64,000 nucleotides of DNA, taken from the NCBI GenBank assembly GCA_036676395.1, contig JAKFCY010000002.1, positions 800,001 through 864,000 on the forward strand, in the 5' to 3' direction. Shown piece by piece: positions 9,060-64,000 of the stretch. Numbering within the stretch: the first letter of the stretch is position 1; each line of letters starts with the position of its first letter. This DNA comes from Bdellovibrio sp. GTDB taxonomy: Bacteria > Bdellovibrionota > Bdellovibrionia > Bdellovibrionales > Bdellovibrionaceae. The notes beneath the pieces were generated by a model. It was not told the DNA's origin and did not search any database. It saw only the letters and a program-made list of their open reading frames with translations. Both the position numbers and the translations under genes were made by a program.

Positions 9060-10572
9060 ATTGTTTCGCGATTATTTTTTATTAGCGTCGGTAATTATTA
9101 TTTTAACTATCGTATTAGGTTTTTTTGTTTCACGTCTTGTCAGCGAAAGTTTTAGACCCGAGCGCGTTCAGCGCCAAATGTTGCCGCCGATTTTTTTAGC
9201 TAAAACGATAGATAATTTAAATTACCCAACAAAACTTGAAGCGATTAGAGCCTTGGAGTCTTTTCATGATCGTCAAGGTCCGAAACCATCTCTTGTTCTT
9301 ATTAATCAAGATCGGCAGATTCTATATTCTGAGGCAGAACTTTCAGACAAAGATATTCCAACTATCGAAGTTTTAACTTCAATTGTTAATGATTATGATT
9401 TTAAATTTTATGGTGAAAAGCAAGAACGTCCAGGCCCACCAATGCCGGGACCAGGTGGTCCTCCTCCGGGTGGTCCTGGTGGCCCCCCGCCAATGCCAGT
9501 GCAAAAATCGGTGATTAAATTAAAAGATGCGCAAAACGATCCCCAGAAATATTATTTAGTAATTTTGCCGCCCAAAATGTTTGAACCGCAAGGTATGGCG
9601 AAATTAATGCCTGTTTTAGGTATTGGTTCATTAGTATTATCACTATTGATCGGTGTGGGGCTTACGCTATTTGTAATTTACTTATCAGTGCGCAAAAAAG
9701 TTAAGGATGCCGATTACGTAATTTCAGAATTACATAAAGGTAATCTTAAAGCGCGCTTTGCCGTAGACCGTAATGATGAATTCGGCCAAGCGATGCTTCG
9801 CTTTAATCAAATGGCCGACCAGATCGAACATTTAGTCAGCCATTTAAAAAGTGTAGAAGTCAGCCGCCGTAAACTTTTACAAGAATTAGCTCATGATTTG
9901 CGAACGCCAATTGCTTCGTTAAAAACCTTACTTGAGACCTTAGAAACAAATAATGAAAAACTTGATTCTAAAACTAAATCAGAACTTCTTTCGCTTTCAA
10001 ACAAAGAAATAAATTATTTTGCTCGTTTAGTTGAAGATTTATTAGTGTTATCTCAGGTCGATGATCCCAAATACAGCAGCGAAAATTCTGGTGTCGCCAT
10101 TTCACAACTTCTTCAGGATGAAATCTATGATGTCGAAGTTAAAAACGCGACAAAACAAATAGAATTTAAGTCTGATTTCAGCGAAGGTCTGCCGCTAATT
10201 GATGGAGATCGAAATTTATTAAAACGTATGTTGCGCAATGCTCTCGAAAACTCTGTTTCATTTACGAAAAACAAATTATGGATTTCGATTCGTGATATTA
10301 GCCCAACAACATTCAGTATTGTGATCTCTGACGATGGTTCGGGGTTTAATCCAGATAGTTTATCTGAATTTGGCGAGCGCCGTATGACTAGAAAAATTCA
10401 ATACAATGGAAACGACAATTCACGTGTATCGGTAGGATTAGGCTCTGTGATTATGAAAAAGATCTGCGAAATTCATGGTGGAAAACTAAAAGCCGAAAAT
10501 CGCACGAACGAACGGGGAGTCATAGAGGGTGCGATTGTCACCTTCACTTTACCGAAATCAAAAAGCGCATAA
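9046..10572 (+). CDS. HAMP sensor histidine kinase
   Basis: 2 TM, HAMP, AHDLRTP, NALENS, DDGSG, GLG. Confidence 0.93.
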   Translation: MIKHRLFRDYFLLASVIIILTIVLGFFVSRLVSESFRPERVQRQMLPPIFLAKTIDNLNYPTKLEAIRALESFHDRQGPKPSLVLINQDRQILYSEAELSDKDIPTIEVLTSIVNDYDFKFYGEKQERPGPPMPGPGGPPPGGPGGPPPMPVQKSVIKLKDAQNDPQKYYLVILPPKMFEPQGMAKLMPVLGIGSLVLSLLIGVGLTLFVIYLSVRKKVKDADYVISELHKGNLKARFAVDRNDEFGQAMLRFNQMADQIEHLVSHLKSVEVSRRKLLQELAHDLRTPIASLKTLLETLETNNEKLDSKTKSELLSLSNKEINYFARLVEDLLVLSQVDDPKYSSENSGVAISQLLQDEIYDVEVKNATKQIEFKSDFSEGLPLIDGDRNLLKRMLRNALENSVSFTKNKLWISIRDISPTTFSIVISDDGSGFNPDSLSEFGERRMTRKIQYNGNDNSRVSVGLGSVIMKKICEIHGGKLKAENRTNERGVIEGAIVTFTLPKSKSA

Positions 10573-10603
10573 AAAAAGGAGAGTTATTAGACTCTCCTTT
10601 TTT
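10571..10603. terminator. Bidirectional terminator
   Basis: AAAAAAAGGAGAGT-tattag-ACTCTCCTTTTTT. Confidence 0.85.
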
Positions 10604-29949: not shown

Positions 29950-29991
29950 ATTCTAGATCTTCGTTTTTCAATTCGTTCTATGTGAAGAATG

Positions 29992-30801
29992 CTAGGGATT
30001 ACTACACCTACTATTGATAAGCCCAACAACAGATTGGGACCAATCATATCTATCCTCTCTGTTTTCGGAAGAGGGCGGAAAAGAATGGGAAAGTAATTTA
30101 ACACATTCTGGATTTTCGTACACCATACGAAGAGACTTTTTATCATTAAGACTAAGCATGTTTTTTGATCTTACAAATATTAATCCATTCATTGCTGAAT
30201 CTCTATCGTACTCACTCAAAAAAAGTGTAAACAGTGAATAAGGTTCATTTTCTTTAACATCTTTATCTTCAGGATGGATGAATTCATGTCTAAAGCCTGC
30301 GAGATGAAGAAATTCATGTAAAACAGTCTGTTTGGATGGCTCGTTAAAAGCGATTGCTGGAATTTCTCCGAGATCTTTTTTTGACCTTAAGCTTTCAGCG
30401 TCAATTATGCCTTGACCTATGGTTGAAAGCCCAAGCCAAGAAGGAGATTTGCTAAACCACATCTTTTTTTTAATTTTACCGGCCTTTACAATTATTACGT
30501 CATAATTATTCTCTTCAGAACATGGTCTCCACCCATCGAAATGAATGCCTGTTTCATCTTCCGAAAAACTTTGTTCAACAATTTTTTTTAATATAGTCTG
30601 AAAATTCGAAGAGTAGAATTCTGGGTTAAAGCTAAAATTTTCAATGGCATATTCTTTATTTTTAAATTGTGTCTTTTCTAGTTGTTTAAGATCATCTAGA
30701 AAACATACATTGACCTTGCGTTTATTCCACATCGCTTGAGGCTCAATTATCGCAGAAAATGCATTAAGCGATAATAAAATACAAATAAAAGCAATCTTCA
30801 T
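29992..30801 (-). CDS. Secreted metzincin/astacin-like zinc metalloprotease
   Basis: Signal peptide; HEFLHLAGFRHE (HExxHxxGxxH); YDRDSAM Met-turn. Confidence 0.8.
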   Translation of the reverse strand: MKIAFICILLSLNAFSAIIEPQAMWNKRKVNVCFLDDLKQLEKTQFKNKEYAIENFSFNPEFYSSNFQTILKKIVEQSFSEDETGIHFDGWRPCSEENNYDVIIVKAGKIKKKMWFSKSPSWLGLSTIGQGIIDAESLRSKKDLGEIPAIAFNEPSKQTVLHEFLHLAGFRHEFIHPEDKDVKENEPYSLFTLFLSEYDRDSAMNGLIFVRSKNMLSLNDKKSLRMVYENPECVKLLSHSFPPSSENREDRYDWSQSVVGLINSRCSNP

Positions 30802-30865
30802 TTTTTACCACACGCTCATTCAATAAATTGTTTTAAGCCATCGTTTGTTATTAATAATTATAGAA

Positions 30866-30880
30866 GCAAGGTTCATACCT
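30866..30880 (-). promoter_or_regulatory. sigma54-like promoter
   Basis: Minus strand AGGTATGAACCTTGC. Confidence 0.45.
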
Positions 30881-31088
30881 TTCAGTAAGTAATAGAGCGG
30901 TCATAGCTTGCAGTAGCAATTGAAGGAGACGCAATTTGTGTCGTTTTTTAGATTTTTTGGATAAAAGGCAGGCTCATTATGAGATTTGTGGGTAAAAAGA
31001 GTATCTTAATTGGACAGACGATTTTGGTTCTTCCAAAATCGTCTGCAATGGAGCGTGAGCTGTTAATTTTAATAAGGGGTTTTAATCC

Positions 31089-31535
31089 CTAGTATCGACA
31101 AGGTGTGATTGCGTATTTAACCGCACGAACTACAATGTGATTTACATATGAAGTTGATCTCAAGCCCGGAATTTTAAATAATTCTGTATCGGTGCTACCG
31201 TCTATATTTATGCTATACTTTTTGCGGTCAGAAACTCTTTTTTCAATATCTGTACTAATGATTTCACATTCATGATAGCCCGCATAAGACTGATTGTGCC
31301 ATCCTTTAGCGCTAACAAGACCTTCACAATAAGCTTTCGCTTCAACAGCGTCTTTCTGTAAAGAGTTTGTTGCATCTTTTCTTGAGTTATAGAACTGGTT
31401 TGCAACTTCAAGTGGAAGAGTAGAACTCGCAATTTTGCATTTAGCAACATCCGCATCAGCCGACCCTGTGTCACCAGTGCCTGCAAATGAATTTAAAGAC
31501 AGCATCACTAAAACCATTGTTAATACTTTTTTCAT
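31089..31535 (-). CDS. Hypothetical secreted protein
   Basis: GAGGAG SD, signal peptide, GTGDTGSA start, 4 Cys. Confidence 0.78.
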   Translation of the reverse strand: MKKVLTMVLVMLSLNSFAGTGDTGSADADVAKCKIASSTLPLEVANQFYNSRKDATNSLQKDAVEAKAYCEGLVSAKGWHNQSYAGYHECEIISTDIEKRVSDRKKYSINIDGSTDTELFKIPGLRSTSYVNHIVVRAVKYAITPCRY

Positions 31536-31775
31536 AAAATCTCCTCGATTTTTTTGTTAGTGACATCGAGAATCAACCGTTATGGCGGCATCAATGTCTT
31601 TATAAAAGGTTAGTTTTGCATTTTCAAAGCCATGCAGGTCATGCCTAATATCCGTTTAAAGCAACCTTGGGTGTTAGCAATTTAGACAGCTTACACAAAG
31701 TGATTCATATGACCTTGGTAGGGAACATTTTTGTTCGCTTGTTGAAGCGCCCTCCCTCGTGGAAAAATTAGCTCG

Positions 31776-32588
31776 ATGGAAAAGCCTACAATTTTTGATT
31801 ATTTGGATGTTGTTCATTTTTTAAATGCCCACTTTAAATGGCGAAAATTCATTGAAGCTAATTTTACCTATACTTCATGGAGTCATGAACTCGATATTGG
31901 CAGCAAAACAATACTGCGGTTTATATTACAGCGGAAACGAAGAATTTCAGAAAAAACACGTCTGGCTATGCTAGCTAATTTAAAATTAACATATAAAGAA
32001 GCCGCGTATTTCGACCTTCTTATTTCTTATAGTCAGCCCCGATCAGAACCTGAGCGTTTAGCGGCTGGACGACAGCTTATAAATATGCAGCGCGATCAAT
32101 ATACACAACTTGAAGTTCAAGCTGAAACAGCTGCAAGTGATGCTTTAGGCCCTGTTATTTTAACACTTCTGACTTTTCATGATCTTGAAGCAACAACTGA
32201 GGAGTTAGCCCGTATCATGAATGCTGATCAAAATAAAATTCAAATGATCTTGGATAAGTTCGTTCAGTTTAATATTGTAGAATTTAAATCCGATCGCTAT
32301 TGGCTCGATGCAGAAGCCATAAAAATAGCAGACAGTCCAAACTTAGAATCGTTACAAAATTTTCATCGATACTGGTTAGATAGAGGTAAGGAAGCGTTTA
32401 GATTTGATTTTAAAACCCGCAGATTTAGATCGTTGAAGTTTGCGTTAACTGAAGAAGAATTTAATTTGGCTCTTGAAAAAATCAATGAATTTGCGCTATC
32501 CATTTTAAATCAATTTCACACATCCCAGATGAGTGGACGCAGATTGTACATGTTGGAAAATGTTCTTTTTCCGATAACCGACCAATAA
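31776..32588 (+). CDS. TIGR02147/DUF4423-like protein
   Basis: IFDYLD..F..FTY.SW HTH-like N-terminus; FH..W..A...F..R.FRSL..AL C-terminus. Confidence 0.75.
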   Translation: MEKPTIFDYLDVVHFLNAHFKWRKFIEANFTYTSWSHELDIGSKTILRFILQRKRRISEKTRLAMLANLKLTYKEAAYFDLLISYSQPRSEPERLAAGRQLINMQRDQYTQLEVQAETAASDALGPVILTLLTFHDLEATTEELARIMNADQNKIQMILDKFVQFNIVEFKSDRYWLDAEAIKIADSPNLESLQNFHRYWLDRGKEAFRFDFKTRRFRSLKFALTEEEFNLALEKINEFALSILNQFHTSQMSGRRLYMLENVLFPITDQ

Positions 32589-32614
32589 GGTCTTTCCGAC
32601 TGCGCCAATTCAGT

Positions 32615-33349
32615 TTAAATATTTTTTAAAAGTTCACGCGCTCCCTCAATTAAAGTGTCACTCCTTCTAATTTTGAATATCACATTGGTTTTTTCTGTGG
32701 ATAAGATTCTATCAATTCTAAATAATCTTGCGGCCTGACGTAGTTCATCCCAGCATAAGAAGTACCAAACGGGAAATTCTAGATACAATATTTGAGGTTC
32801 TACTAAACGTTCAGTGATTTCGTTTTTGGCAGACTTATATCTAATTTTAATTTTTGTAAAATTAAAAAAACTATCTGTCAGAGCACCTAAAACAGACTGT
32901 CGGGGAGCTGTATAACTTTGAAGTACATGTTCGGATGCGATGTCGCCTACCAATATCCGTTTTCTTATTCTTGAAATGATTTGTTGTTGTTCAATCGGGA
33001 ACGCCGATGAAATTCTATTCTTTATCGAATGTATATTATCTACAAGTATCGGCGACTTGATGGATTCTGTTATTGTCAGTGAAACTAACAAGGTGATGAC
33101 TTCAGAATTATTTAAATGTAACTGATTGAGTCCCCATCGGCCAACAATTGAAATTCCGCCTCCACGACCTCTTTCTGATTCTATGGGCACACCGGTTTCT
33201 TTAAGCTCTGCAAGATCCCGCATGAGCGTGCGATAGCTAATATCAAGCTGGTCACAAAGTCTTTTGCTTGTCCAATAACTTTCAGACCGAAGGCAATCAA
33301 CGATTTGCTCTTGTCTTTCTTTTTTTTCTCTTAAGCTGCCTTTTGCCAT
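32615..33349 (-). CDS. HTH-WYL transcriptional regulator (YafY-like)
   Basis: LDISYRTLMRDL..GVPIESERGRGGG; RLVEP..WYFLCWD..RLFRIDRI. Confidence 0.9.
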   Translation of the reverse strand: MAKGSLREKKERQEQIVDCLRSESYWTSKRLCDQLDISYRTLMRDLAELKETGVPIESERGRGGGISIVGRWGLNQLHLNNSEVITLLVSLTITESIKSPILVDNIHSIKNRISSAFPIEQQQIISRIRKRILVGDIASEHVLQSYTAPRQSVLGALTDSFFNFTKIKIRYKSAKNEITERLVEPQILYLEFPVWYFLCWDELRQAARLFRIDRILSTEKTNVIFKIRRSDTLIEGARELLKNI

Positions 33350-33368
33350 ACTACTGACTATAGCACAA

Positions 33369-35473: not shown

Positions 35474-35483
35474 GGTATTTTAA

Positions 35484-35828
35484 TCAGCTCCATTCGACTC
35501 CCCATTTTGCCAAGGCCTCGACAACACCTTTTAGTGCCAATCCTTTTTTGGTTAAAGAGTATTCGACGCGTGGAGGGATTTCTGCATATATTTTTTTCGT
35601 AACTATTTTTGCTTTTTCAAGTTGGCGTAGTCGATCAGTCAAGGTCTTGGGATTTAGATCGCCTAGTGATCTTTTCAGTTCTCCAAACCTTTTTGTTCCA
35701 CTAAGAAGGTCTCGCAAAACAAGAATTGTCCACTTTCCATCGAGCGCTTCTAAAGTTTTCCTGACAGGACAGTCTGGATTACATGCGTCATCAAAATTAT
35801 TTTTATTTTTTTTTGCTAAAGATTTCAC
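35484..35828 (-). CDS. HxlR-family transcriptional regulator
   Basis: CPVRKTL..GKW..RFGEL..PPRVEYSLT. Confidence 0.92.
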   Translation of the reverse strand: MKSLAKKNKNNFDDACNPDCPVRKTLEALDGKWTILVLRDLLSGTKRFGELKRSLGDLNPKTLTDRLRQLEKAKIVTKKIYAEIPPRVEYSLTKKGLALKGVVEALAKWGVEWS

Positions 35829-35934
35829 TGTTTATTACCTTTCCTTCCACATAGTTACTTTTTTACTACTACTTTAAAATATAATCAAAGATCTCTAATA
35901 TAACTGTAACAGGTTATAACCAGGAGAACCACAT

Positions 35935-36516
35935 ATGAAGTTCAAATTTCAATTAACCACTCTTATTTTAGGAGTGGCTTTTGCCCTAGGGGCGATTCAA
36001 GTTCATGCAGCAGAAATTTCGGTTGAGACTGATCCCGCAACATTTGCATTCGAAGGCTACGCCGGGCATGTAAGGATTCAACCAGACGGTTCTCCGTGGG
36101 TTATTAGTTTGGGTGCCTACTCTCTTAAATTTCCTGGTATTATGCGAAAACTTGTAATTGAGCCCTCGTCTGACAGTATAAACCTTAAACTCGACTCAGG
36201 GGTGGGGCTGTTTGTGGATCGCTATTGGTCTGCAGCAAAAAATGAAGGCTTTTTTACAGGAGCTCAGGTTGCGCATCACAATCTAACCGTCAGTGACAAA
36301 AATGCACCGGGCAGTGAATCTAAATACAAAGCTGTGATTGTTATGCCTAGGATGGGATATCGTTGGAACATAGGAAATAGCGGATTTTACCTTTTGCCTT
36401 GGGCGGGGCTTGGCTTTGTTTCTACAATTGGAGATGATCCAAAAATTGGAAACCAAACTTACTCTGCAAAAAAAATGCTGCCATTTGGAACCCTTCATCT
36501 TGGTTATCAGTTTTGA
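35935..36516 (+). CDS. Putative small outer-membrane beta-barrel protein
   Basis: Signal peptide, GYRW, C-terminal LGYQF. Confidence 0.7.
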   Translation: MKFKFQLTTLILGVAFALGAIQVHAAEISVETDPATFAFEGYAGHVRIQPDGSPWVISLGAYSLKFPGIMRKLVIEPSSDSINLKLDSGVGLFVDRYWSAAKNEGFFTGAQVAHHNLTVSDKNAPGSESKYKAVIVMPRMGYRWNIGNSGFYLLPWAGLGFVSTIGDDPKIGNQTYSAKKMLPFGTLHLGYQF

Positions 36517-37583
36517 AAGTGCTGAAGCGGGTAAGTCTAGCTATGAGTTTTCTTGGTTTTTTTGGTTGTGTTTCGACTGGCCAGAAAGTTTCGGATCACT
36601 TTGACGGCAAAAAATTCTTTTATAAAGACGCTCCAGCACAGAAAAGTTTTTTTGATCTCTTCAAATGGCAAATGACAGGAGAGAAATCCAAGTGGCCAGA
36701 ATGGATCAACGATAATGCTCAACCTGATCTGCAAACCCATGTCGAAAAAGGAACGGCTTGGATTACTTATATTAATCATGCAACTCATTTGATCCAGTTA
36801 AATAATTTGAATATTTTAACGGATCCTATATTTTCCGAACGAGCCAGCCCATACAGATGGGTTGGTCCCAAGCGCATTCGGCACCCCGGAATTCATTTCA
36901 ATGATCTGCCAAAAATCGATGTCGTTATTCTAAGCCACAATCACTATGATCACATGGACTTACAGTCGATCTCTGAACTAGAAAGAAAATTTAGGCCACT
37001 TTTTTTAGTTCCATTGGGAAATGCAAGTCTTCTTAAAGAATCTGGAGCCACAAATGTGCATGAATTGGATTGGTGGGAATCCAAAAGAGTTGGAGATAAC
37101 CAAGATGAGATTTTTTTAACACCTCTTCATCATTGGAGTGCGCGCGGGCTTTTTGATCAAAATGAGAGTCTATGGGGCGGGTACGTCATTCGATCAGCTG
37201 AATTAAAACTATTTTTTGGGGGAGATTCTGCCTACGGACCTTTTTTTAAGGAAGTCTATAGTAGATTCGGTGCGATGGATGTCTCCATAATTCCAATTGG
37301 AGCTTATGAGCCTCGTTGGTTTATGAAGGACCAGCATTTAAACCCTGATGAAGCTGTTCAGGTTCATCTTGATTTGAAGTCTCGATTGAGTATTGCAACT
37401 CACTTTGGAACATTTCCACTAACTGATGAGGGATACGATCAGCCCGTTATTGATTTGCAGGCCGCTTTGTTAAAATTGAATATTTCAAACCATGAATTTG
37501 TTGCTACGAAAAATGGCGGCACAGTTTATTTTCGTAGAAATCTTAGTTTAGGGAAGCAATCAAAACTGCGATGGATTCAATGA
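36513..37583 (+). CDS. MBL-fold hydrolase (NAPE-PLD/RomA-like)
   Basis: LTDPIFS, SHNHYDH, HWSARG, PIGAYEPRWF, HFGTF. Confidence 0.92.
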   Translation: MKVLKRVSLAMSFLGFFGCVSTGQKVSDHFDGKKFFYKDAPAQKSFFDLFKWQMTGEKSKWPEWINDNAQPDLQTHVEKGTAWITYINHATHLIQLNNLNILTDPIFSERASPYRWVGPKRIRHPGIHFNDLPKIDVVILSHNHYDHMDLQSISELERKFRPLFLVPLGNASLLKESGATNVHELDWWESKRVGDNQDEIFLTPLHHWSARGLFDQNESLWGGYVIRSAELKLFFGGDSAYGPFFKEVYSRFGAMDVSIIPIGAYEPRWFMKDQHLNPDEAVQVHLDLKSRLSIATHFGTFPLTDEGYDQPVIDLQAALLKLNISNHEFVATKNGGTVYFRRNLSLGKQSKLRWIQ

Positions 37584-37637
37584 CAGCAGATGATGGCCTT
37601 TTGCCTCATTTGCCGCAGCTCAGTCGTAGTTTGATAG

Positions 37638-37652
37638 TGGCTCAGACTTTGC
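37638..37652 (+). promoter_or_regulatory. sigma54-like promoter
   Basis: TGGCTCAGACTTTGC. Confidence 0.55.
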
Positions 37653-37668
37653 AATTTCTATTGTCACG

Positions 37669-39576
37669 ATGTTAAGAAAAAATCATGACAACTTACATAT
37701 GCAGCACAATGAAAAAGATCACTTTAAGGCTTTATCTCAAGTTGTGCCTGTAGGTATTTTCTTTGCTGATCAGCAAGGTATCTGCACCTATGCCAATGAT
37801 AAGTGGCTGGATATTTCGGGCCTGCAGTTGCGCGATGTGCTTAACAAGAATTGGTTAAAATTCATTCACCCTGACGATCAGACAAAAATTTCTAAAGCTT
37901 GGCAGATTGCCACCCGTAGGCAAATTCCTTTTCAACAAGAGTTTCGCTTACTTCATTCTAATAACGAAATTACTTGGGTTAATGTGCAAGCAAATCCTTT
38001 AAAAGATCAGGCAGGTTCTATTCGCTATGCCGGGGTCTTAAGTGAAATTAGTGAACGCATGAAAGAGCAAGAGATTTCTCGTGAAAATGCAGAACGCTTC
38101 ACGAATGCTTTTGAGTATGCGTCGATTGGGATGGCGTTAATTTCAATCGAGGGCGGCTGGCTCAAGGTTAATCAAACGGTCTGTGATTTATTGGGTTACA
38201 CGAAGTCAGAATTAATGCATTTAACTTTTCAACAAATTACTCATCCAGATGATCTGGCTCAGGATCTGGATTATGTGCACATGCTACTCGATGGTAAAAT
38301 TAAAAGCTATGGCTTGGAAAAACGCTATTTTACCAAATCCGGAAAAACTGTTTGGGCTCATTTAAGTGTTTCACTCGTGCGCAATCAAAAAGGTGAGCCA
38401 CTTTATTTTATTTCTCAGATAGAAGATATTTCTGATCGCAAACGCATGGAAGAAGAGCTTAGAAAAAATGAGCAGCGATTACTTATGGCCACAACCTCGG
38501 CTCAACTTGGGGTTTGGGATTTCGATTTAGAAGCAAATAGACTTGAGTGGAATGATCAGATGTACGCACTTTATGGTGTAAAACGAGAAGATTTTCAGCC
38601 CTCGTTTGAAGGCTGGAAAAAAAGTCTGCATCCAGATGACATGAGCCGCAGTATTCAGGATTTTCAGGCCTCTTTAAGTGGCGAAAAATTTAATTCAGAG
38701 TTTAGGGTTGTGTGGCCGAACGGAACCATAAGAAATATCAAAGCTATGGCTGGGCTTGTGCGCAATGCTCAAGGGGTTGCAACGCGGGTGACGGGGATCA
38801 ATCAAGATATTACCGAAGATAAAAGAGCCATGGAAAGACTAAAAGAATTAAATGAATATCTTGAAGAAGCCCGTAATGTTGCAGAAAAAGCGACCGTGTT
38901 AAGATCACGTTTTCTGGATATAGCGGCGCACGAACTACGCACACCAGTAACGGCATTTAATCTCATCTTGCAAATTGCGCAAAAGAAACTTGAAAAAGGC
39001 CAGCAAGTTGGCGCTGAAGTTTTAACGCGTCTTCAGATGCAGGGTGATCGTATCGCCCGATTGGTTGTAGATCTTTTGGATGTCTCAAGGCTTGAACGAG
39101 GAGTGCTGCAAATCAAGCGCGAGCCGGTGGATATATCGAATCTTATTATTAACTGCATGAATGAAAATAAGCTGAGATATCCAAATCGAGAGATCGTGTT
39201 CGCGCAAATAAAACCAGTGGTGATTAAAATTGATCCGATTAGGATTTATCAGGTGATTTCAAATTTATTGGACAATGCCTGTAAATATACGCCAGAAAAT
39301 TCTCCGATCGAAATATCTGTAAAAGATGAGCCTCATGGCGTGACTGTATCTGTAAGTGATCATGGTCCTGGTATTCCAGAAGCCCAGAAAGAAAGTTTAT
39401 TCACCATTTTTTCGCGCGGTTCGACTGAGTTGGTCGAGCGATCAGGTGGGCTTGGATTAGGGTTATTTATTTGCCAATCCCTTGTAGAACTTCATCAAGG
39501 AAAAATCGCTGTCACTAGCCAAATTGGTCAAGGAAGTACTTTTTCTTTCGAGCTTCCAAGAGAGGAAGCCTTATGA
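37669..39576 (+). CDS. Cytoplasmic triple-PAS sensor histidine kinase
   Basis: Three HPDD PAS repeats, AHELRTP, NLLDNACKY, GLGLGL. Confidence 0.92.
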   Translation: MLRKNHDNLHMQHNEKDHFKALSQVVPVGIFFADQQGICTYANDKWLDISGLQLRDVLNKNWLKFIHPDDQTKISKAWQIATRRQIPFQQEFRLLHSNNEITWVNVQANPLKDQAGSIRYAGVLSEISERMKEQEISRENAERFTNAFEYASIGMALISIEGGWLKVNQTVCDLLGYTKSELMHLTFQQITHPDDLAQDLDYVHMLLDGKIKSYGLEKRYFTKSGKTVWAHLSVSLVRNQKGEPLYFISQIEDISDRKRMEEELRKNEQRLLMATTSAQLGVWDFDLEANRLEWNDQMYALYGVKREDFQPSFEGWKKSLHPDDMSRSIQDFQASLSGEKFNSEFRVVWPNGTIRNIKAMAGLVRNAQGVATRVTGINQDITEDKRAMERLKELNEYLEEARNVAEKATVLRSRFLDIAAHELRTPVTAFNLILQIAQKKLEKGQQVGAEVLTRLQMQGDRIARLVVDLLDVSRLERGVLQIKREPVDISNLIINCMNENKLRYPNREIVFAQIKPVVIKIDPIRIYQVISNLLDNACKYTPENSPIEISVKDEPHGVTVSVSDHGPGIPEAQKESLFTIFSRGSTELVERSGGLGLGLFICQSLVELHQGKIAVTSQIGQGSTFSFELPREEAL

Positions 39577-39932
39577 AAAAAACCATTATGATCATCGAAG
39601 ATGAAAGCGACATTCGCTCATCGTTAAAAGAAATTTTAGAGCTTGTCGGCTACAATGTATTGACCGCAGAAAATGGATTAGACGCCTTAAATATTTTGAA
39701 AGCCTCTGTGACGCCCAATTTGATTCTTCTGGATATGAAAATGCCTGTGATGAATGGTTGGGAATTTGCCGACCAGTTTCGCAAAACTTACGATCACAAG
39801 TCACCGATTGTAGTTGTGACGGCTGCCGCTGATAGTGAACAAAGGGCAAAAGATATTAACGCTATAGGCTGGATATCTAAACCTTTTGAGCTGGACATGC
39901 TTCTTAAAAAAATCAAAGAATGCGAAAATTAG
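39573..39932 (+). CDS. Single-domain response regulator
   Basis: IEDE, LDMKMPVMNG, KPF. Confidence 0.92.
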   Translation: MKKTIMIIEDESDIRSSLKEILELVGYNVLTAENGLDALNILKASVTPNLILLDMKMPVMNGWEFADQFRKTYDHKSPIVVVTAAADSEQRAKDINAIGWISKPFELDMLLKKIKECEN

Positions 39933-39981
39933 AAGAGCATTCCAATTGACGGAAAAATAAAGACATGTTTAGTATTAAAGC

Positions 39982-41502
39982 ATGAAAATACAGTGGAAGA
40001 TATTTTATTGCCTATTTACCATTGTACTGTTTTTAATCGTTATCGTTGCATTTACTTATAATGCGACCACCAAAGTTTCGTACTTTCGTGACCGTTCATT
40101 AGCTGTTGAAGGTCGCCTTTTGGCAGAAACTTATTTGCGAGCGCAAGTTAGAAATCAGCTGTTAGAAACATTTGATGTTTTGTATGTGTCAGGAATCGAC
40201 AGGTATGAAGATCGAATTAACCAAGGCAAAGAAGAAGTTCAAAATAAAATTTTGGATCTTAAAAATGCTCTCACGGAATCCGGTGTGATCGATGCCACCT
40301 ATAAAGCTGATCTGGATGAAATTGTAAATTCATATGATAGGCTGCAAAGCACTTTAGATCAGGGTGTAGCACTTTTAAAAAGTGGTAACGTAAAAGAAGC
40401 GCGCCAGGTTCTTATTGATGCCCGCGAGAATAAATTTAAAAAAGGCTTTCTTGAGAAAATCTCTGTGCTTATTGAGAAAGAATCGCAAATCAGTAATTTT
40501 GAATCAAATAATTTAGAACAAAGTATTAAGTGGCTTCAAAGAATACTTTTGCTTTCTGCAGGGGCTGCGTTGTTGTTGTCGTTAATTCTATCGACATTCA
40601 TTGCCCGTTCAATTGGACGAAGACTGGACCGCATCGAGAAGGCGGCACAAAGAATTTCTTCTGGTGATTTTAATATTTCGTTACCTACGCATGGACAAGA
40701 TGAGGTCTCGACATTGTCGCAGGCGATAAATAAAATGGCGGCATCTTTATTTGAAGCACAAACGCAAATCATCAAACAGCAGGAGCTATTGATTACAAGT
40801 TCTAAGATGTCATCCTTAGGTGAAATGGCCGGTGGCATTGCTCATGAAATTAATACGCCATTGGCCGTGATAGCGCTGAAGGCCGACTTGCTTGAAGCGG
40901 CAAGTAACACCGAGGAGTTTGCCTTAAACGGCAGAGAAATTGTTGCAGAGGCCTGTTCGATGATTCATAGAACAACCGATCGTATCGCAAAAATTATTAT
41001 TGGTCTTAGGGCTTTCGCACGTGATGGTACTTCTGATCCTTTTCAAAAAATGGATATGCAGACTATTGTTAAAGACACGCTTGATCTTTGTAGCGAAAAA
41101 TTTCGTAGCAGTGGAGTTGCGCTGCAAGTGCAAATGCCTGAAAGCGAATTAGCCTTAGCTTGTCGCGCAACGCAGATTTCGCAGGTTCTTTTAAATTTAT
41201 TAAGTAATTCATTTGATGCCATACAAGAGATTTCAGAAAAGTGGATAAAAATCGAGGCGCGGGATTTGGGCACTGAGGTAGAGTTGAGTGTGACTGATAG
41301 CGGCCATGGAATATCGGCGGCTATTCGCTCTAAACTGGCGCAACCCTTTTTCACTACTAAAGAAGTCGGCAAGGGCACAGGACTTGGTCTGAGTATATCT
41401 CGCGGAATTGTCATGGATCATGGCGGACGCTTAATCTTAGACGAACAAAGCCCTCATACTCGCTTTGTCATTATACTTCCGAAAGATCGGATCACTTCTT
41501 AA
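39982..41502 (+). CDS. Membrane HAMP sensor histidine kinase (NtrB-like)
   Basis: 2 TM, HAMP, AHEINTPL, PFFTTK..GTGLGL. Confidence 0.92.
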   Translation: MKIQWKIFYCLFTIVLFLIVIVAFTYNATTKVSYFRDRSLAVEGRLLAETYLRAQVRNQLLETFDVLYVSGIDRYEDRINQGKEEVQNKILDLKNALTESGVIDATYKADLDEIVNSYDRLQSTLDQGVALLKSGNVKEARQVLIDARENKFKKGFLEKISVLIEKESQISNFESNNLEQSIKWLQRILLLSAGAALLLSLILSTFIARSIGRRLDRIEKAAQRISSGDFNISLPTHGQDEVSTLSQAINKMAASLFEAQTQIIKQQELLITSSKMSSLGEMAGGIAHEINTPLAVIALKADLLEAASNTEEFALNGREIVAEACSMIHRTTDRIAKIIIGLRAFARDGTSDPFQKMDMQTIVKDTLDLCSEKFRSSGVALQVQMPESELALACRATQISQVLLNLLSNSFDAIQEISEKWIKIEARDLGTEVELSVTDSGHGISAAIRSKLAQPFFTTKEVGKGTGLGLSISRGIVMDHGGRLILDEQSPHTRFVIILPKDRITS

Positions 41503-54060: not shown

Positions 54061-54136
54061 GCGGGAGTAGCTCAGTTGATAGAGCGATGCCTTGCCAAGG
54101 CATAGGTCGCGGGTTTGAGTCCCGTCTCCCGCTCCA
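54061..54136 (+). tRNA. tRNA-Gly(GCC)
   Basis: GCGGGAG/CTCCCGC acceptor stem, loop TT-GCC-AA, U73, CCA; variant D- and T-loops. Confidence 0.93.
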
Positions 54137-54176
54137 ATTTTTCGATCGAAAAATTGGCTTGTTTACCCTTAAATTT

Positions 54177-54230
54177 TAAATATAAAAAAACCCGATAGAA
54201 ATATCGGGTTTTGTTTTTTGTGGGTTTGAT
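54177..54230 (+). repeat. 54-bp direct repeat, left copy (contains terminator hairpin)
   Basis: TAAATATAAAAAAACCCGATAGAAATATCGGGTTTTGTTTTTTGTGGGTTTGAT, identical to 56866-56919. Confidence 0.95.
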
Positions 54231-54348
54231 TAGTGGTTTTTTGTCTAATTTTTTTAAAGTATCTGACTCTTTGCAAAAATGGCCAGTAATCTTTACTTCA
54301 ATCGGCAATTTCAAGACAATTCAGTCTTATTCAATTTGGGAGTTAGAT

Positions 54349-56844
54349 ATGAACTTACAAGCAGAAAGAAATATTCCTCACTCAATTATTAAAGCTTGTT
54401 TGCTAAAAATGAGTGATGGTTTTAGGTTCGAAGATTTTGCTAAAGCGATTTTAAATATTACTCAAGGATTAAACTTTGTTCCTGTCGGCGGTATTCATGA
54501 TGGTGGTCAAGATTCATTTGTGTATGAGTCGAGCGACAAGCGTATAGTTTATCAATTTAGTATCAGGAAAGATTGGCGAACTAAAATTAGGAAGACAATT
54601 GAGCGAATTCAAGCCAATCCTCAGTTTAACGGGATTACTTTTTCTGTGATTTATGTCACGAATATTGAAATTGAACAAAGCGAAATAGATACCTTTCAGA
54701 TAAAAATTTTAACCGAAACAGGAGTAAATTGCCTGATTCTCGAAAACTCTAAATTGACTCTAGAAGTTGATAGCTTAGAAGAGACGAGGAAGCAGTTTAT
54801 AGATTTTTGCACCAGATTTGCAGTTTTTCTTGAAGTTGAAAATCAAGTTAAAGATATTTATTCTTCAGATGGACTAGACAACACGCTAGTTTATCTAAAA
54901 CATTTTTCGGAGAGTTCTGGACAAGTTGATTATTTAGAAATTCTAGTAAGCACCCATCTTTTTAATTGTTTGAAAGAAACTGATCCAGACAAAAAACTTT
55001 TCGTTAGCTACAGCAAATGCATTGAGTACATTTGTGGTCAACTTCCCAATCTTTCAAAAGATTTTATTTCTGAAAACGTTCAAAAAATCTTCAAACGTAT
55101 CGAGAAGAAACACAGAGATGATCGTGAGATTAGAGATCATCAAAATGAAGGTTACTGTTTAGCCTATTCAAAGCGTTTGCAAGTTCAGGAATTTATCGCG
55201 CAAGATGCTATTCTCTTCGAAAGATTCACGGCTGAACTTGTTGAACAAATAGCAATTTGTTCAAATGAGGTTATTAAAACAATAGATCCAAAAGTTGTTG
55301 AAGCTATAATCAAGGATGTGCTAGCTGAGGTTTTCCGCAGGCAAGGATTAGAAATTTCGGTCGCAATTCATGATCCAAAAAGTGCATATGTAAATGCAAA
55401 TCTGAAGGAAATTACACAGTCGGTTATCGCAACGAAGTATTCGACTACTTTAAATGCAAAAAAACTTCACATGCCGATTTTCGATATAGTTTATAATATT
55501 TTATGGAGACCAACTTCAATTCAAAAAGAATTTTGTACTTCACTTGCTAAAACTTTCTCTCTATTGTTTTTGGGACGGGCTGATGCGCATGTTGTAAAGC
55601 ACTTAAAGCAATCCGCACGCGGACTTCGTCTTTTGATGGGTACGGATGTTATTATTAAAGTTTTAGCTGAAATTCACTTACCCAATGAGCTACAAAGATT
55701 TACTAATTTAATAAGAAGCTTGAGAGCATCCCAAGTTACTTTATGCGTTTGCGATTCAATCTTAAGAGAAACGGCAGCGCATATTCGCTCCTCTATCAAT
55801 TGGTATCGTGAACATATTCAGCCTTCAGTTAAGGATGCAGAATCTGACCCTGCGCTACGGGAAGTGCTTGATTTTGAGGAAAGATTCTCCGGAAAAATTT
55901 TGATTCGGGCTCACTATCACGCGAAGAATGACGGTAAGGTAAAAACTTTTGAAGAATTTATCGAAAATTTCGTCGGCCCAAATCAAAATCACTTCTATAA
56001 AGATATTTTTGATTATCTTAGAGCTGAATTTGGAGTTGAGCAGGTAAATCAAAAAATAGCGGAAGAAGATAGGGATTTTCAGTTTGTTTTTAGTGAATTA
56101 ATGAAAGTAAATGGACGTGCATTAACAGAACACGCAAAAAGAATTATCATTGAAACAGACGCTAAAACTATCATGTGTACCTATCATCTTAGAAAAGATT
56201 ATCCAATTGGTCAAAATTTAGACTTTATTTTGCCAGAAAAAGTATGGTGGCTTACATTTGAATCTAAGATTTCAAAAGTTTATGGGAAGCTAGAAGAACG
56301 CTTCGGGAATTTACCAAATATCAACCCGGTTGTTATTGTAAGTTTGCTTGCCAATTTAGATGTTTTAACTTCGAAAAGCACTTTTGATTCAGTTTTGGGA
56401 ACGGCAATCGGGATTAATATGTCTCACACCGTACCAGACGAAATTGTGGAAATGCTAAATACGACGTATCAATCGGTAAAGACTATGAACAAGGGTAAAA
56501 AAGCTCAACTAATGAGACGGATATTCGAGAATCTGCAGGCAGGGGATTTCGATAAAGTGACTCATTATTTTGAGGACTACTTTTCTCAAGTGAAAAAGGA
56601 GCAAGGCCGCATCGAAGAAATTCATGCTAATATGAAGGGGAATATGGACCCAAAAGAAATTTGGAAGGCAGTTTCCTTAGTTGAAAGCAATCCAATTAAG
56701 CGCGTGATTTTGTTTAAAGAGGTTACTGAAGAGTCTTTTCCTAGAACACTAGCAATCTTGAAAGATGTTGGGTTGAGTGACGAAGTACAAGCATTTCTTG
56801 ATAATCATGGACAAAACGCATTATCCAAAATTCCAGACGTTTAA
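54349..56844 (+). CDS. Large protein with N-terminal restriction-endonuclease-like and C-terminal PIN-like regions (candidate defence protein)
   Basis: GGAG SD; FEDF..GGIHDGGQD..YQFS; LLMGTDVII..ILRET..ETDA..WWLT. Confidence 0.7.
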   Translation: MNLQAERNIPHSIIKACLLKMSDGFRFEDFAKAILNITQGLNFVPVGGIHDGGQDSFVYESSDKRIVYQFSIRKDWRTKIRKTIERIQANPQFNGITFSVIYVTNIEIEQSEIDTFQIKILTETGVNCLILENSKLTLEVDSLEETRKQFIDFCTRFAVFLEVENQVKDIYSSDGLDNTLVYLKHFSESSGQVDYLEILVSTHLFNCLKETDPDKKLFVSYSKCIEYICGQLPNLSKDFISENVQKIFKRIEKKHRDDREIRDHQNEGYCLAYSKRLQVQEFIAQDAILFERFTAELVEQIAICSNEVIKTIDPKVVEAIIKDVLAEVFRRQGLEISVAIHDPKSAYVNANLKEITQSVIATKYSTTLNAKKLHMPIFDIVYNILWRPTSIQKEFCTSLAKTFSLLFLGRADAHVVKHLKQSARGLRLLMGTDVIIKVLAEIHLPNELQRFTNLIRSLRASQVTLCVCDSILRETAAHIRSSINWYREHIQPSVKDAESDPALREVLDFEERFSGKILIRAHYHAKNDGKVKTFEEFIENFVGPNQNHFYKDIFDYLRAEFGVEQVNQKIAEEDRDFQFVFSELMKVNGRALTEHAKRIIIETDAKTIMCTYHLRKDYPIGQNLDFILPEKVWWLTFESKISKVYGKLEERFGNLPNINPVVIVSLLANLDVLTSKSTFDSVLGTAIGINMSHTVPDEIVEMLNTTYQSVKTMNKGKKAQLMRRIFENLQAGDFDKVTHYFEDYFSQVKKEQGRIEEIHANMKGNMDPKEIWKAVSLVESNPIKRVILFKEVTEESFPRTLAILKDVGLSDEVQAFLDNHGQNALSKIPDV

Positions 56845-56865
56845 TGGGGGCTAGGTCTAAATGCA

Positions 56866-56919
56866 TAAATATAAAAAAACCCGATAGAAATATCGGGTTT
56901 TGTTTTTTGTGGGTTTGAT
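56866..56919 (+). repeat. 54-bp direct repeat, right copy
   Basis: Identical to 54177-54230. Confidence 0.95.
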
Positions 56920-56938
56920 AAAGAAATCTTATCAGCAA

Positions 56939-57436
56939 TTATTTAAAAATTTCGATCACGTATCCAACTGTTGTACTGTTAGCTCTCAACATTTTGTAGG
57001 CAGCTTGTTCAAATATTTGATCGCCTTCAGGATTTTCAGGGATATTAGAAAGCATTTCGTTTGAAATTTTTGATACTGAATCTGAATGAACCTTAGCTCC
57101 GGCTTTTAGCTCAGCTGAACGTTTTTCAACTGGTATTTTTACTATAATGCATGCCGCTTCTGTAAGTAAAAGCGCCATATCATCAGGGCTGGTTTTTGCG
57201 GCTTCGGCATTGTCATTTAAAACGGTTTGTAACTCTTTTTTAAGAGCTCTACCTAATTGAATTACAGGAATAAGATCTCCGTCTGTCTGCATATCATAGC
57301 GGTCTACAGCTGCGACAAGGATCGCATCAGCTTCTTCTGGCTTGCATGTAATCGGCGTATCATTGATATCTTTTTGCGCGAAAGCTGAAGTTGTAGTTAC
57401 TAAGATAGACGCCATTAAAATAATTAGTGTTTTCAT
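56939..57436 (-). CDS. Hypothetical secreted protein
   Basis: MKTLII..AFA signal peptide. Confidence 0.72.
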   Translation of the reverse strand: MKTLIILMASILVTTTSAFAQKDINDTPITCKPEEADAILVAAVDRYDMQTDGDLIPVIQLGRALKKELQTVLNDNAEAAKTSPDDMALLLTEAACIIVKIPVEKRSAELKAGAKVHSDSVSKISNEMLSNIPENPEGDQIFEQAAYKMLRANSTTVGYVIEIFK

Positions 57437-57561
57437 ACATTGGGTAAATGCACTGGACATACCAAAACACAAAGTGTCTCAGGGTAAATATATTTGATTT
57501 CAGGCTGTCTAAAATTTTGAAAAGGCGCAAAATTGGTAGGCGCCTCAGGTTGAGATTCAGG

Positions 57562-62076: not shown

Positions 62077-64000
62077 TTGAAATACGATCAGCGTCCAGAT
62101 CCAGATGCACTTTTGAGTGCCGTCGATGAATTAGAAAAAAGACGTCACGAGGGGCGATTGCGTATTTTTTTAGGAATGTCTGCGGGAGTAGGTAAGACTT
62201 ATGCCATGCTTCGCGCAGCTCATCAAAGACTGCGCGAAGGTATTGATGTTGTCGTCGGTATTGTCGAAACGCACGGTCGTTCAGAAACCTTAGAATTAAC
62301 CGAAGGACTGCCTCATATTTCCCGCAAAAAAATTCATTATCGCGGAGCCGATCTTGAAGAGTTAGATATTGATGAAATTTTACGTCGTAAGCCAGAACTT
62401 GTGATCGTCGATGAATTAGCCCACACAAATGCGCCTGGATCACGCCATGCTAAAAGATACCAAGACGTTATAGAAATATTAGAAGCTGGTATTGATGTGT
62501 ATACAGCTTTTAATGTGCAGCACTTAGAAAGCCGTAAAGACGCTGTTGAAGCGATTACCGGAATTCCCATTCGCGAAACTGTACCAGATAGCATTTTAGA
62601 AAAAGCCACATTAGTTGAATTAGTTGATATTGCTCCTTCTGAATTATTAAAACGCCTTAAAGAAGGTAAAGTTTATTTGGGTGACAAGGCTGAGAGAGCC
62701 ACACAAAATTTTTTCAAAGAAGATAAATTAACGGCCTTACGTGAAATTGCTCTGCGGATGACAGCTGAGCGTGTTGATCAAGATTTGCAAAAATTTGTCA
62801 GCATCAGAGCTGAAGGTAATCCTTGGCAAACGAATGAGCGCTTATTAGTGGCGATCAGTCACAGCCCGTATTCAGAAAAGCTGATTCGCGCAACTCGCAG
62901 GTTAGCTTATAATTTAGAAGCTCCATGGATTGCACTTCATGTCGATACCGGAATTACCTTAAATGACAACGATCAGGCACAACTTGTAAAAAACTTAAAC
63001 TTAGCCCGTGAATTAAAAGCAGAAGTTATCACGACAACAGAAGTTGATGTGCCCTCGGCAGTCAGCCGTGTGTGTCGGCAAAAAAATGTGACTCAAGTTG
63101 TTGTCGGAAGGCCTACGCGACGATGGTTTCGTGACCTGATAGAAAAAGGAAATCTTTTAGAAGGTTTAATTCGCGAAAGTTTAGAAGTTGATGTGCATGT
63201 GATTCGTCAAGAGGGCGAGTCTACGGCTAGGCCGAGTCTGCTTGATGAAGTATCGTATTATCGTTCTAAAACTGGTCCGGTGAAATACTGGTACACATTG
63301 TGGTTTGTCGTTGCGGTAAGCTTACTAGGTCTTCTGATGGAAGGTTTTATCGGCTACCGAGCCGTCGGATTCTTTTTTCTGTTGGCCGTGGTTATTGTAA
63401 GTATGTTTGGTTCTATTGGTGCCGTAGTTTTGGCCGCCTCGCTGAGTACAGTGATTTGGAATTACTTTTATATTCCGCCAAAATTTACTTTTTTTATCAG
63501 TAACACAGAAGATATCTTGATGTGTTTTGCTTTTTTTATTGTGGCCTTGATTACGGGATTTTTAACCAACCGCACACGCTATCATGAACGCGTCATTCGC
63601 GAACGTGAAGAGCGCACAAATGTGCTGTATGAAATTTTACAGGATATTTCGGCCGCTTCAGAAAAATCAGAATTCTTAAATAAAACTACAGCTCGGGTCG
63701 GAAAACTTTTGGATGCAGAATGTGGTGTGATTCTGAAGTCTGTCAGTGGTATTCTGGAGTTCGACGAGACAAAACCATATTATCTAGAACTAAGCCCCAA
63801 AGACTGCGCCGTTGCCCAGTGGTGCTTTGAGCATGATAAAGCGGCAGGCTGGTCAACAGAAACACTTTCGCAGGCTGAAGCTTTATTTCTGCCTTTAAAA
63901 GGTGATTCTGAAATTGTCGGTGTTTTTGTATTTAAGCCAGTTCGCAAAGTAAGAAAATTAGATTTAGAAAAAGAAACTTTATTAATCTCAGTCGTGCGTC
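62077..64000 (+). CDS. kdpD: Sensor histidine kinase KdpD (partial, runs off the window)
   Basis: AGGAG SD plus TTG; MKYDQRPDPDALL, GMSAGVGKTYAML, VDELAHTN, Usp-like, TM and GAF regions. Confidence 0.93.
   Translation, partial: MKYDQRPDPDALLSAVDELEKRRHEGRLRIFLGMSAGVGKTYAMLRAAHQRLREGIDVVVGIVETHGRSETLELTEGLPHISRKKIHYRGADLEELDIDEILRRKPELVIVDELAHTNAPGSRHAKRYQDVIEILEAGIDVYTAFNVQHLESRKDAVEAITGIPIRETVPDSILEKATLVELVDIAPSELLKRLKEGKVYLGDKAERATQNFFKEDKLTALREIALRMTAERVDQDLQKFVSIRAEGNPWQTNERLLVAISHSPYSEKLIRATRRLAYNLEAPWIALHVDTGITLNDNDQAQLVKNLNLARELKAEVITTTEVDVPSAVSRVCRQKNVTQVVVGRPTRRWFRDLIEKGNLLEGLIRESLEVDVHVIRQEGESTARPSLLDEVSYYRSKTGPVKYWYTLWFVVAVSLLGLLMEGFIGYRAVGFFFLLAVVIVSMFGSIGAVVLAASLSTVIWNYFYIPPKFTFFISNTEDILMCFAFFIVALITGFLTNRTRYHERVIREREERTNVLYEILQDISAASEKSEFLNKTTARVGKLLDAECGVILKSVSGILEFDETKPYYLELSPKDCAVAQWCFEHDKAAGWSTETLSQAEALFLPLKGDSEIVGVFVFKPVRKVRKLDLEKETLLISVVR

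Follow-up and report, generated by a model that had tools for sequence, protein, structure and literature searches.

How does a single gene come to lie between two perfect copies of an intergenic sequence when neither an integrase gene nor any part of a tRNA accompanies the repeats? The question is raised by a locus in a Bdellovibrio sp. genome (G000; 3,401,850 bases), at which an exact 54-nt direct repeat encloses one open reading frame (ORF) downstream of tRNA-Gly(GCC). The window analysed here is a stretch of 64,000 nucleotides (G000:C2:800001-864000), and positions are those of the window unless a contig is named. Our preferred explanation is that the locus represents an 'insertion with long target duplication', made without a recombinase in a terminator common to tRNA-Gly(GCC) and a convergent 177-amino-acid gene, through a mechanism of breakage, fill-in and joining; we give this explanation as a whole a probability of about 0.45.

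The two repeat copies occupy positions 54177-54230 and 56866-56919, are 100% identical and begin 2,689 nt apart. According to ARAGORN, tRNA-Gly(GCC) lies at 54061-54136 on the plus strand; copy 1 begins at the 41st base past its CCA, with 40 nt between, and contains no tRNA sequence. The repeat search and ARAGORN thus reproduce what the first-pass annotation had described, namely perfect 54-bp repeats with a period of 2,689 that start beyond the tRNA and include none of it. The insert (54231-56865; 2,635 bp) holds a single gene and is composed of a non-coding leader at 54231-54348 (plus strand), in which GGGAG stands 6 nt before the ATG, the cargo gene P0001 at 54349-56844 (plus strand; 831 residues), and a 21-nt spacer at 56845-56865 (plus strand) from the cargo stop codon to copy 2. 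The GC content of its interior is 0.353, as compared with 0.390 in the left-hand 10 kb and 0.416 on the right-hand side. Since there is one ORF and no recombinase family among its matches (the cargo protein matched no transposase or integrase family), the earlier description of a lower-GC single gene inserted without an integrase holds as well. No terminal inverted repeats or transposon-like ends were seen when the ends of the insert were read. The repeat is confined to this locus: its 24-nt hairpin core gave 2 matches in the 64-kb window at up to 3 mismatches (at least two matches in 0 of 100 shuffles), a 124-nt query over copy 1 matched in the genome only its own locus, the second 54-nt copy and a 21-nt self-palindrome beside the tRNA, and no third copy was found in the whole 3.40-Mb genome. 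A leftward, degenerate extension of the repeat (TAAAT motifs) was considered and dropped, being too short and AT-rich to evaluate.

Comparison with relatives indicates how the arrangement arose. The sister genome G018 belongs to the same genus, is about 95% identical and is the sole relative close enough for a comparison of the locus. When 40 relatives were searched with 5.5 kb of the locus, G018 returned two match pieces that overlapped by 52 nt at this point, and direct reading revealed the left flank with tRNA-Gly, one 54-mer (52/54 identical) and the right flank with the 177-residue gene; a relative with an empty site and one 54-mer had been predicted beforehand, and G018 is such a genome. 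The flanks are 94.6% (2,727 nt) and 95.2% (690 nt) identical to those of G018. The other 39 relatives match little past the tRNA gene, G016 extending by a few bases only, and no alternative cargo between 54-mers was seen in the one comparable relative. An empty site alone lacks direction, and identical 54-nt repeats would favour precise deletion; the arrangement could therefore be ancestral, with G018 having lost the cassette through recombination between the repeats and with no recent insertion in G000. We regard this as highly improbable. Of the 52 genomes searched in the genus, G000 alone yielded the P0001 gene (1 of 31 when genomes at least 90% complete are counted), the 51 others having none; the repeat copies show 0 differences in 54 positions, against a divergence of about 5% between the flanks and G018; the interior of the insert has a lower GC content; and the origin of the duplication would stay unexplained. 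Had the copies existed since G000 and G018 diverged, the probability of finding no differences would be about 0.07 for the 54 nt and about 0.013 for this and a second repeat locus (see below) taken together. Because the gene is restricted to one genome in 52 and the repeats are identical despite the diverged flanks, the event is read as a recent insertion in G000 rather than a deletion in G018, and on these sequence comparisons bases 54231-56865 very probably constitute recent foreign DNA acquired in the G000 lineage with a 54-bp target duplication. An AT-rich palindrome with a 10-bp stem (54134-54157), which overlaps the CCA end of tRNA-Gly, is conserved in G018 apart from 2 changes.

The first-pass annotation had named an assembly artefact as a possible refutation, and metagenome contigs assembled at k=31 from four runs were used to examine it, among them X1 (one of two soil runs that are possible sources), X3 (another sample of the same study) and X4 (groundwater, another study). 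In such an artefact a separate 2.69-kb circle sharing the 54-mer would have been threaded into the chromosome by the assembler. In X1 the contigs break exactly at the repeat; depths are 45.4 for the left flank, 54.6 for the cassette contig of 2,695 nt, 77.3 for the 54-mer and 49.4 for the right flank, and permit no ranking or inference. An integrated cassette and an empty site accompanied by a circle are equally compatible with the X1 graph. Against the artefact, a 431-nt contig of X3 (56755-57185) matches with 0 differences and links the cassette, by way of the 54-mer, to the right flank; as X3 and the possible source share a study, this evidence is not fully independent. It establishes the right junction of the integrated form, whereas the left junction is bridged by no listed contig. 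The repeat moreover sits within a 2.7-Mb contig. In X4 both flanks are covered at 90-96% identity and the cassette hardly at all, with a single joint across the site at a low depth (2.9, side 22), from which no conclusion about an empty site is drawn. We consider it barely credible that the cassette owes its position to the assembler.

The nature of the duplicated sequence was then read from its structure and surroundings. Both copies carry a hairpin (54187-54212 in copy 1) with an 11-bp perfect stem, a 4-nt loop, an A-run on its 5′ side and a T-run on its 3′ side, which is terminator-like on both strands; RNA folding gave −15.0 kcal/mol for the plus strand and −13.5 kcal/mol for the minus strand, and none of 200 shuffles was equally stable on either strand. 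The right neighbour, a convergent gene of 177 residues (56939-57472, minus strand; no family match) that adjoins the single 54-mer in G018, has its stop codon 19 nt from copy 2. Given a hairpin that is terminator-like in both directions and a convergent gene that ends this close to it, the repeat is read as a bidirectional terminator between two convergent transcription units. As judged from sequence, every unit retains a predicted terminator after the insertion, tRNA-Gly at copy 1 and both the cargo (plus strand) and the convergent gene (minus strand) at copy 2, in agreement with the earlier proposal that the cargo arrives insulated. A promoter scan returned no promoter-like site facing the cargo in or beside the repeat, and none in the leader (54231-54348). 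The same 28-nt hairpin is present in G001 (L035:6018-6045) and G020 (L037:6015-6042), with a loop variant in G014 (L036:6006-6051). G001 and G020 represent two other species of the genus. These occurrences were considered as an attachment (att) site and rejected, as the hairpin there serves as terminator for two convergent genes of housekeeping type, one of them ATP-synthase-c-like; at the orthologous site G000 has a different hairpin.

Integrative elements have att sites of similar appearance, namely direct repeats around a perfect palindrome next to a tRNA gene. The cassette could accordingly lack autonomy and be mobilized by a site-specific recombinase acting in trans, for which the 54-mer would be the att site, in the manner of a cis-mobilizable element (CIME), an IMEX or an integron cassette. 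The genome does hold candidate enzymes, with six Phage_integrase matches (four full-length tyrosine recombinases and two fragments) and seven Y1_Tnp matches (resembling transposases associated with repetitive extragenic palindromes (REP); RAYT-like). All six Phage_integrase matches lie away from the cassette, the nearest on its contig more than 400 kb distant. The first-pass annotation had suggested looking for further 54-mer copies and for an adjoining recombinase, and in G000 there is no third copy and no recombinase beside either of the two. The attC cores RYYYAAC and GTTRRRY are absent from both copies with 30 nt on either side, on both strands. An origin from a RAYT/REP system was rejected, the REP beside the best Y1_Tnp match being unlike both the 54-mer and the 33-nt repeat of the second locus; the other six Y1_Tnp matches were examined for perfect hairpins only. 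Furthermore, as similarity outside G018 passes the tRNA gene only in G016, the spacer would make a poor target for a travelling element, and the second locus, with its unrelated hairpin, would call for two different missing recombinases. Mobilization by a recombinase acting in trans is thus distinctly unlikely in our view, and the notion of a dedicated attachment site, or of a slot serviced in trans, finds no support.

The cassette resembles islands formed by integrases at tRNA genes in its position, its direct repeats and its presence/absence polymorphism, and differs from them in lacking an integrase and in a repeat that excludes the 3′ part of the tRNA. A classical island of that kind is found on contig C4 of the same genome, with a 45-nt repeat of a tRNA 3′ end at C4:4599-4643, a copy 15,715 nt downstream and a Phage_integrase match at C4:4770-5240. 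The repeats of a CIME are the att sites of a resident or visiting integrative and conjugative element (ICE) or integrative and mobilizable element (IME). CIMEs and the tandem accretion of ICEs and IMEs share with the present locus an integrase-less segment with direct repeats beside a conserved gene; here no ICE or IME bearing the repeat and no third copy is present in the genome. Two small contigs, C9 (4,580 nt) and C14 (7,173 nt), carry the same 123 nt at both ends, as small circular molecules of 4,457 and 7,050 nt would; neither holds the 54-mer.

A second insertion of similar architecture was revealed by two scans of the genome. The first, for exact direct repeats of at least 25 nt spaced 200-30,000 nt apart, gave 148 matches, mostly coding repeats; the second, in which the length was lowered to 18 nt and an internal hairpin was required, gave two terminator-type cases. 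One is the cassette, and the other is a 33-nt hairpin repeat at G000:C2:2603271-2603303 and 2604761-2604793, 1,490 nt apart (L039:2272-3794), which encloses 1.46 kb encoding a 290-residue DUF4423 protein (minus strand) and a 142-residue protein (plus strand). Its hairpin is bidirectional by fold and unrelated in sequence to the 54-mer, and G018 has an exact empty site with one hairpin. Two unrelated hairpin sequences make a single sequence-specific recombinase unlikely. At the scale of the genome, 293 terminator-like hairpins yielded 43 similar pairs, and similar hairpins were enriched at short range: at spacings of 100 nt to 30 kb, 6 of 765 pairs were similar, as compared with 35 of 42,013 farther apart (odds ratio 9.5; Fisher P=8 × 10−5), and omission of a pair on the small contig C6 left an odds ratio of 7.9 (P=7 × 10−4). 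Three neighbouring pairs have identical stems and different loops (G000:C2:501001/503496, 527618/530285 and 2139905/2141130) and delimit blocks of 1.2-2.7 kb. One of these blocks is present in G018; at each of the remaining loci the two genomes differ exactly at the first hairpin, with other hairpins and an additional 1.24 kb or about 3 kb of DNA in G018. Such loop-diverged pairs may be older duplications of the same kind.

We propose that the duplication was made in place by a staggered break, fill-in and end joining, a mechanism suggested by the architecture, to which we give somewhat less than even odds. In this sequence of events, nicks on opposite strands would flank the palindromic terminator, and the hairpin or cruciform would help the strands to part and so leave long overhangs; these would be filled in, and a linear foreign fragment would be ligated between the ends by host end joining of the Ku/LigD type. 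Through the identical repeats left behind, homologous recombination would then be able to remove the insert precisely or amplify it in tandem. Insertion of this kind would be independent of sequence, and the second insertion would consequently duplicate an unrelated terminator hairpin. The host has a suitable apparatus: a Ku gene (144.8 bits) lies 1 kb from an 845-codon ORF with an ATP-dependent ligase domain (113.5 bits; G000:C2:659645-661710), and these two probably form an end-joining pair. A Ku match occurs in only 1 of 14 control genomes. The genome also contains a ComEC-like gene.

Homologous recombination offers another route to the same structure. A perfect identity of 54 bp suffices for homologous recombination, and the two copies have just that; a circle carrying one terminator copy and the cargo could have been integrated at the chromosomal terminator through one crossover of the RecA type and could leave likewise, the terminator serving as portable homology. 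There is a functional analogue in the PeSL cassettes of T4-type phages, where promoter-terminator cassettes recombine, shuffle genes and form mini-circles (PMC2839356). As in the present locus, terminator repeats bound small modules that vary between relatives, and recombination can delete, swap or circularize them. Two further loci that vary between G000 and G018 do so exactly at hairpins with the same stem, and the depth of the X1 cassette contig exceeds that of its flanks (54.6 versus 45.4 and 49.4), a difference that cannot rank the parts. Against such a route, the 54-mer occurs nowhere else in the genome, so that the incoming DNA would already have to hold a species-specific intergenic sequence, and the first duplication would merely be moved back one step. 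No circle was seen in the k=31 contigs, in which the 54-nt repeat would hide one. The PeSLs are, in addition, a dispersed, multi-copy family with a promoter in phage genomes, whereas here there are two locus-specific copies in a bacterial chromosome and no promoter call. We therefore hold entry by homologous recombination to be unlikely, with an appreciable residual chance; by analogy, the PeSL cassettes may be the nearest functional counterpart for the later action of the repeats.

The cargo gene bears on the comparison with published insertions. Its reading frame is open from 54211, within copy 1 of the repeat, and the public gene call starts there and gives 874 residues. The true start is most likely the ATG at 54349, giving 831 residues, because GGGAG precedes it and the two closest homologues have 832 and 830 residues. 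The family is rare, with 27 proteins at E≤1 × 10−3 among 5.8 billion clusters, P0001 included; the best non-self matches (P0003 and P0004) share 58% and 57% identity with P0001, and the remaining ones 24-28%. The only Pfam match is to SMEK_N (PF21941; residues 27-115), which at 19.9 bits stays below the gathering cut-off of 27 (E=7.2 × 10−4); this nuclease domain has been described in proteins that partner short Argonautes (PMC10810196). All Atlas neighbours of P0001 are annotated 'hypothetical protein'.

An AlphaFold2 model of P0001, built from 26 sequences (mean predicted local distance difference test score 72.9), suggests three domains. Residues ~3-158 are predicted to form a PD-(D/E)xK restriction-endonuclease-like domain, with structural matches to the FokI cleavage domain (Z 9.1), MspJI (9.1), the Type ISP enzyme LlaBIII (8.9) and AspBHI (8.7); residues ~190-290 a winged helix (Z about 7); and residues ~421-675 a PIN-like domain (1y82, Z 10.8; VapC21, 10.5; VapC15, 9.9). 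Local Foldseek matches of the model to FokI and MspJI have a probability of 1.00 with E values of 0.03-0.05, and since no Pfam PIN family matched P0001, the PIN assignment is that of the predicted model. The predicted N-terminal fold is therefore like that of FokI and the related restriction enzymes (Z 8.7-9.1) and the predicted C-terminal fold like that of VapC-type PIN nucleases (Z up to 10.8), and P0001 differs from all of them in that there is no whole-protein match and sequence similarity falls below family cut-offs. In the 26-sequence alignment, the invariant residues of the first domain include D51, G53, D55, Q69, S71 and K79, and those of the PIN part include E441, E474 and D604 (each 26/26), R615 and W633-W634, with D433 adjoining the first conserved acidic column. 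The usual position of the (D/E)xK lysine is taken by Q-x-S (Q69, S71), with an invariant K79, so that the nuclease activity of the PD-(D/E)xK-like domain is only putative.

The genomic contexts of distant homologues add to this picture; searches for related loci yielded distant relatives only. One locus (L025) has as neighbours a BrxC/D-like ATPase, two helicases, a WYL protein, type I HsdM/HsdS and GmrSD; a second (L031) an integrase and an AAA_15/AAA_21 ATPase; and a third (L032) a T4 coupling protein, RepA and MobA. Because distant family members thus reside in defence islands and plasmid-like DNA, P0001 is most likely a stand-alone defence or addiction nuclease, as far as contexts and predicted folds can tell, and both lend support to the defence-like cargo that the first-pass annotation had suggested. 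The family, combining restriction-endonuclease-like, winged-helix and PIN domains in the model, is a candidate for a new single-gene defence system.

Nobusato et al. (2000; Gene 259:99) reportedly gave the first account of insertion with long target duplication. The architecture seen here is already in print under that name: Furuta, Abe and Kobayashi (2010; PMC2853133) described restriction-modification units and a lone mcrA gene inserted without any other mobile element. In those cases the repeats exceed 30 bp (46-47 bp in examples), are unique in the genome and single in the sister strain, and often span the start or stop of a neighbouring gene, which leaves the neighbour intact; the cases come mostly from naturally competent species. 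The search there was for inserts <20 kb with homologues of restriction (R) and modification (M) genes, and a lone mcrA and orphan M genes were also reported; the authors suggest double-strand breakage and propose a cycle of insertion, repeat-mediated amplification and release, of which amplification alone is shown (PMC2853133). The present insert has 2,635 bp and one gene, without other mobile-element genes; its repeat of 54 nt is single at the empty site of the relative (52/54 in G018) and, with two copies in 3.40 Mb, is absent elsewhere in the genome. The locus and the insertions described in that paper are therefore alike in a small insert free of mobility genes, unique target repeats, an empty site in a sister genome, atypical GC content, a nuclease-type defence cargo (here by prediction) and intact neighbours.

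The locus also differs from the cases published there (PMC2853133) in several respects. The cassette lacks a methyltransferase, and its cargo is one protein with restriction-endonuclease-like and PIN folds by model, which makes up no R and M pair and belongs to no known restriction family; what was duplicated is a bidirectional intrinsic terminator, a word ('terminator') with 0 occurrences in the paper; a Bdellovibrio-type host lineage is not among the examples published there; and the second case found here is without a nuclease. Our literature search for insertions that duplicate a terminator found nothing closer. Published cases of this little-understood process document the entry of defence nucleases into genomes without any mobility gene. 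The locus adds a clean case to these, with perfect repeats, an exact empty site, one uncharacterized gene with two predicted nuclease domains and a host lineage without an earlier report. It may also point to a rule, in that both insertions described here duplicate a bidirectional terminator hairpin in a host that encodes Ku and a LigD-like ligase; should terminators and end joining prove to be linked in genome pairs generally, this would provide a testable mechanism and explain why the transcription of neighbouring genes is undisturbed.

As a control, the window region was compared with G018, which revealed five indels or replacements. At ~10575 (10572-10578), between a gene end and a terminator, G018 has a specific insert of 5.35 kb (G018:C4:373434-378787), and a 3.4-kb block specific to G000 (29953-33356) directly follows tRNA-Arg; neither has a repeat of at least 10 nt. 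At 35480-40000, 4.5 kb in G000 face 1.8 kb in G018. The cassette (54231-56919) has its 54-nt repeat, and from 57556 a 7.9-kb kdp block stands in place of 42 bp in G018, with no repeat seen when its junctions were read. The terminator-duplicating route is thus real and is a minority route of gene flux here.

Several points weigh against the preferred explanation of an insertion by breakage, fill-in and joining. There is one close relative, and the direction of the event depends on the absence of the gene from 51 more distant genomes and on the identity of the repeats. The mechanism is proposed on the grounds of the architecture and of the Ku and ligase genes that the host encodes. Among the four G000/G018 indels or replacements examined for flanking repeats, the cassette alone has them. 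No nuclease is carried in the second case, where the cargo consists of a DUF4423 protein and a small unknown protein, and the published idea of a break made by the cargo's own nuclease therefore fails to account for the two cases alike. P0001 has 0 matches in PADLOC, NCBIfam and PHROGs and belongs to no curated defence family in these collections. Finally, flanking direct repeats of at least 14 nt were found at 0 of 8 loci of distant homologues, which indicates that the repeat belongs to this insertion event and not to the gene family.

The two insertions raise the wider and doubtful prospect that bacteria in general acquire genes without a recombinase at palindromic intrinsic terminators, whatever the sequence of these. 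Extrusion of a hairpin or cruciform would provoke staggered breaks at such sites, and either fill-in with end joining or a hairpin-directed enzyme would insert the DNA. If this were true, each new gene would arrive transcriptionally insulated and bounded by repeats that enable its loss, amplification or exchange; the 25-year-old puzzle of insertion with long target duplication would acquire a mechanism and a target rule; and terminator-bounded variable modules, including the two perfect and three diverged hairpin pairs found here, would be accounted for.

The contents of the other variable segments in the window were also recorded. The 5.35-kb insert of G018 reuses the resident terminator hairpin without duplicating it. 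The block at 29953-33356 starts 4 nt after tRNA-Arg(TCG), encodes a DUF4423 protein, a regulator with WYL and helix-turn-helix domains and two ORFs without known function, and corresponds to about 29 bp in G018. The segment at 35480-40000 has no G018 match at E≤1 × 10−20 and encodes a metallo-beta-lactamase-fold protein, a PAS histidine kinase and a response regulator. The kdp block runs from 57556 to the window end at 64000 and on to G000:C2:865481, and opens with kdpA and kdpB; the end of an X4 contig at 57549 resembles the G018 arrangement.

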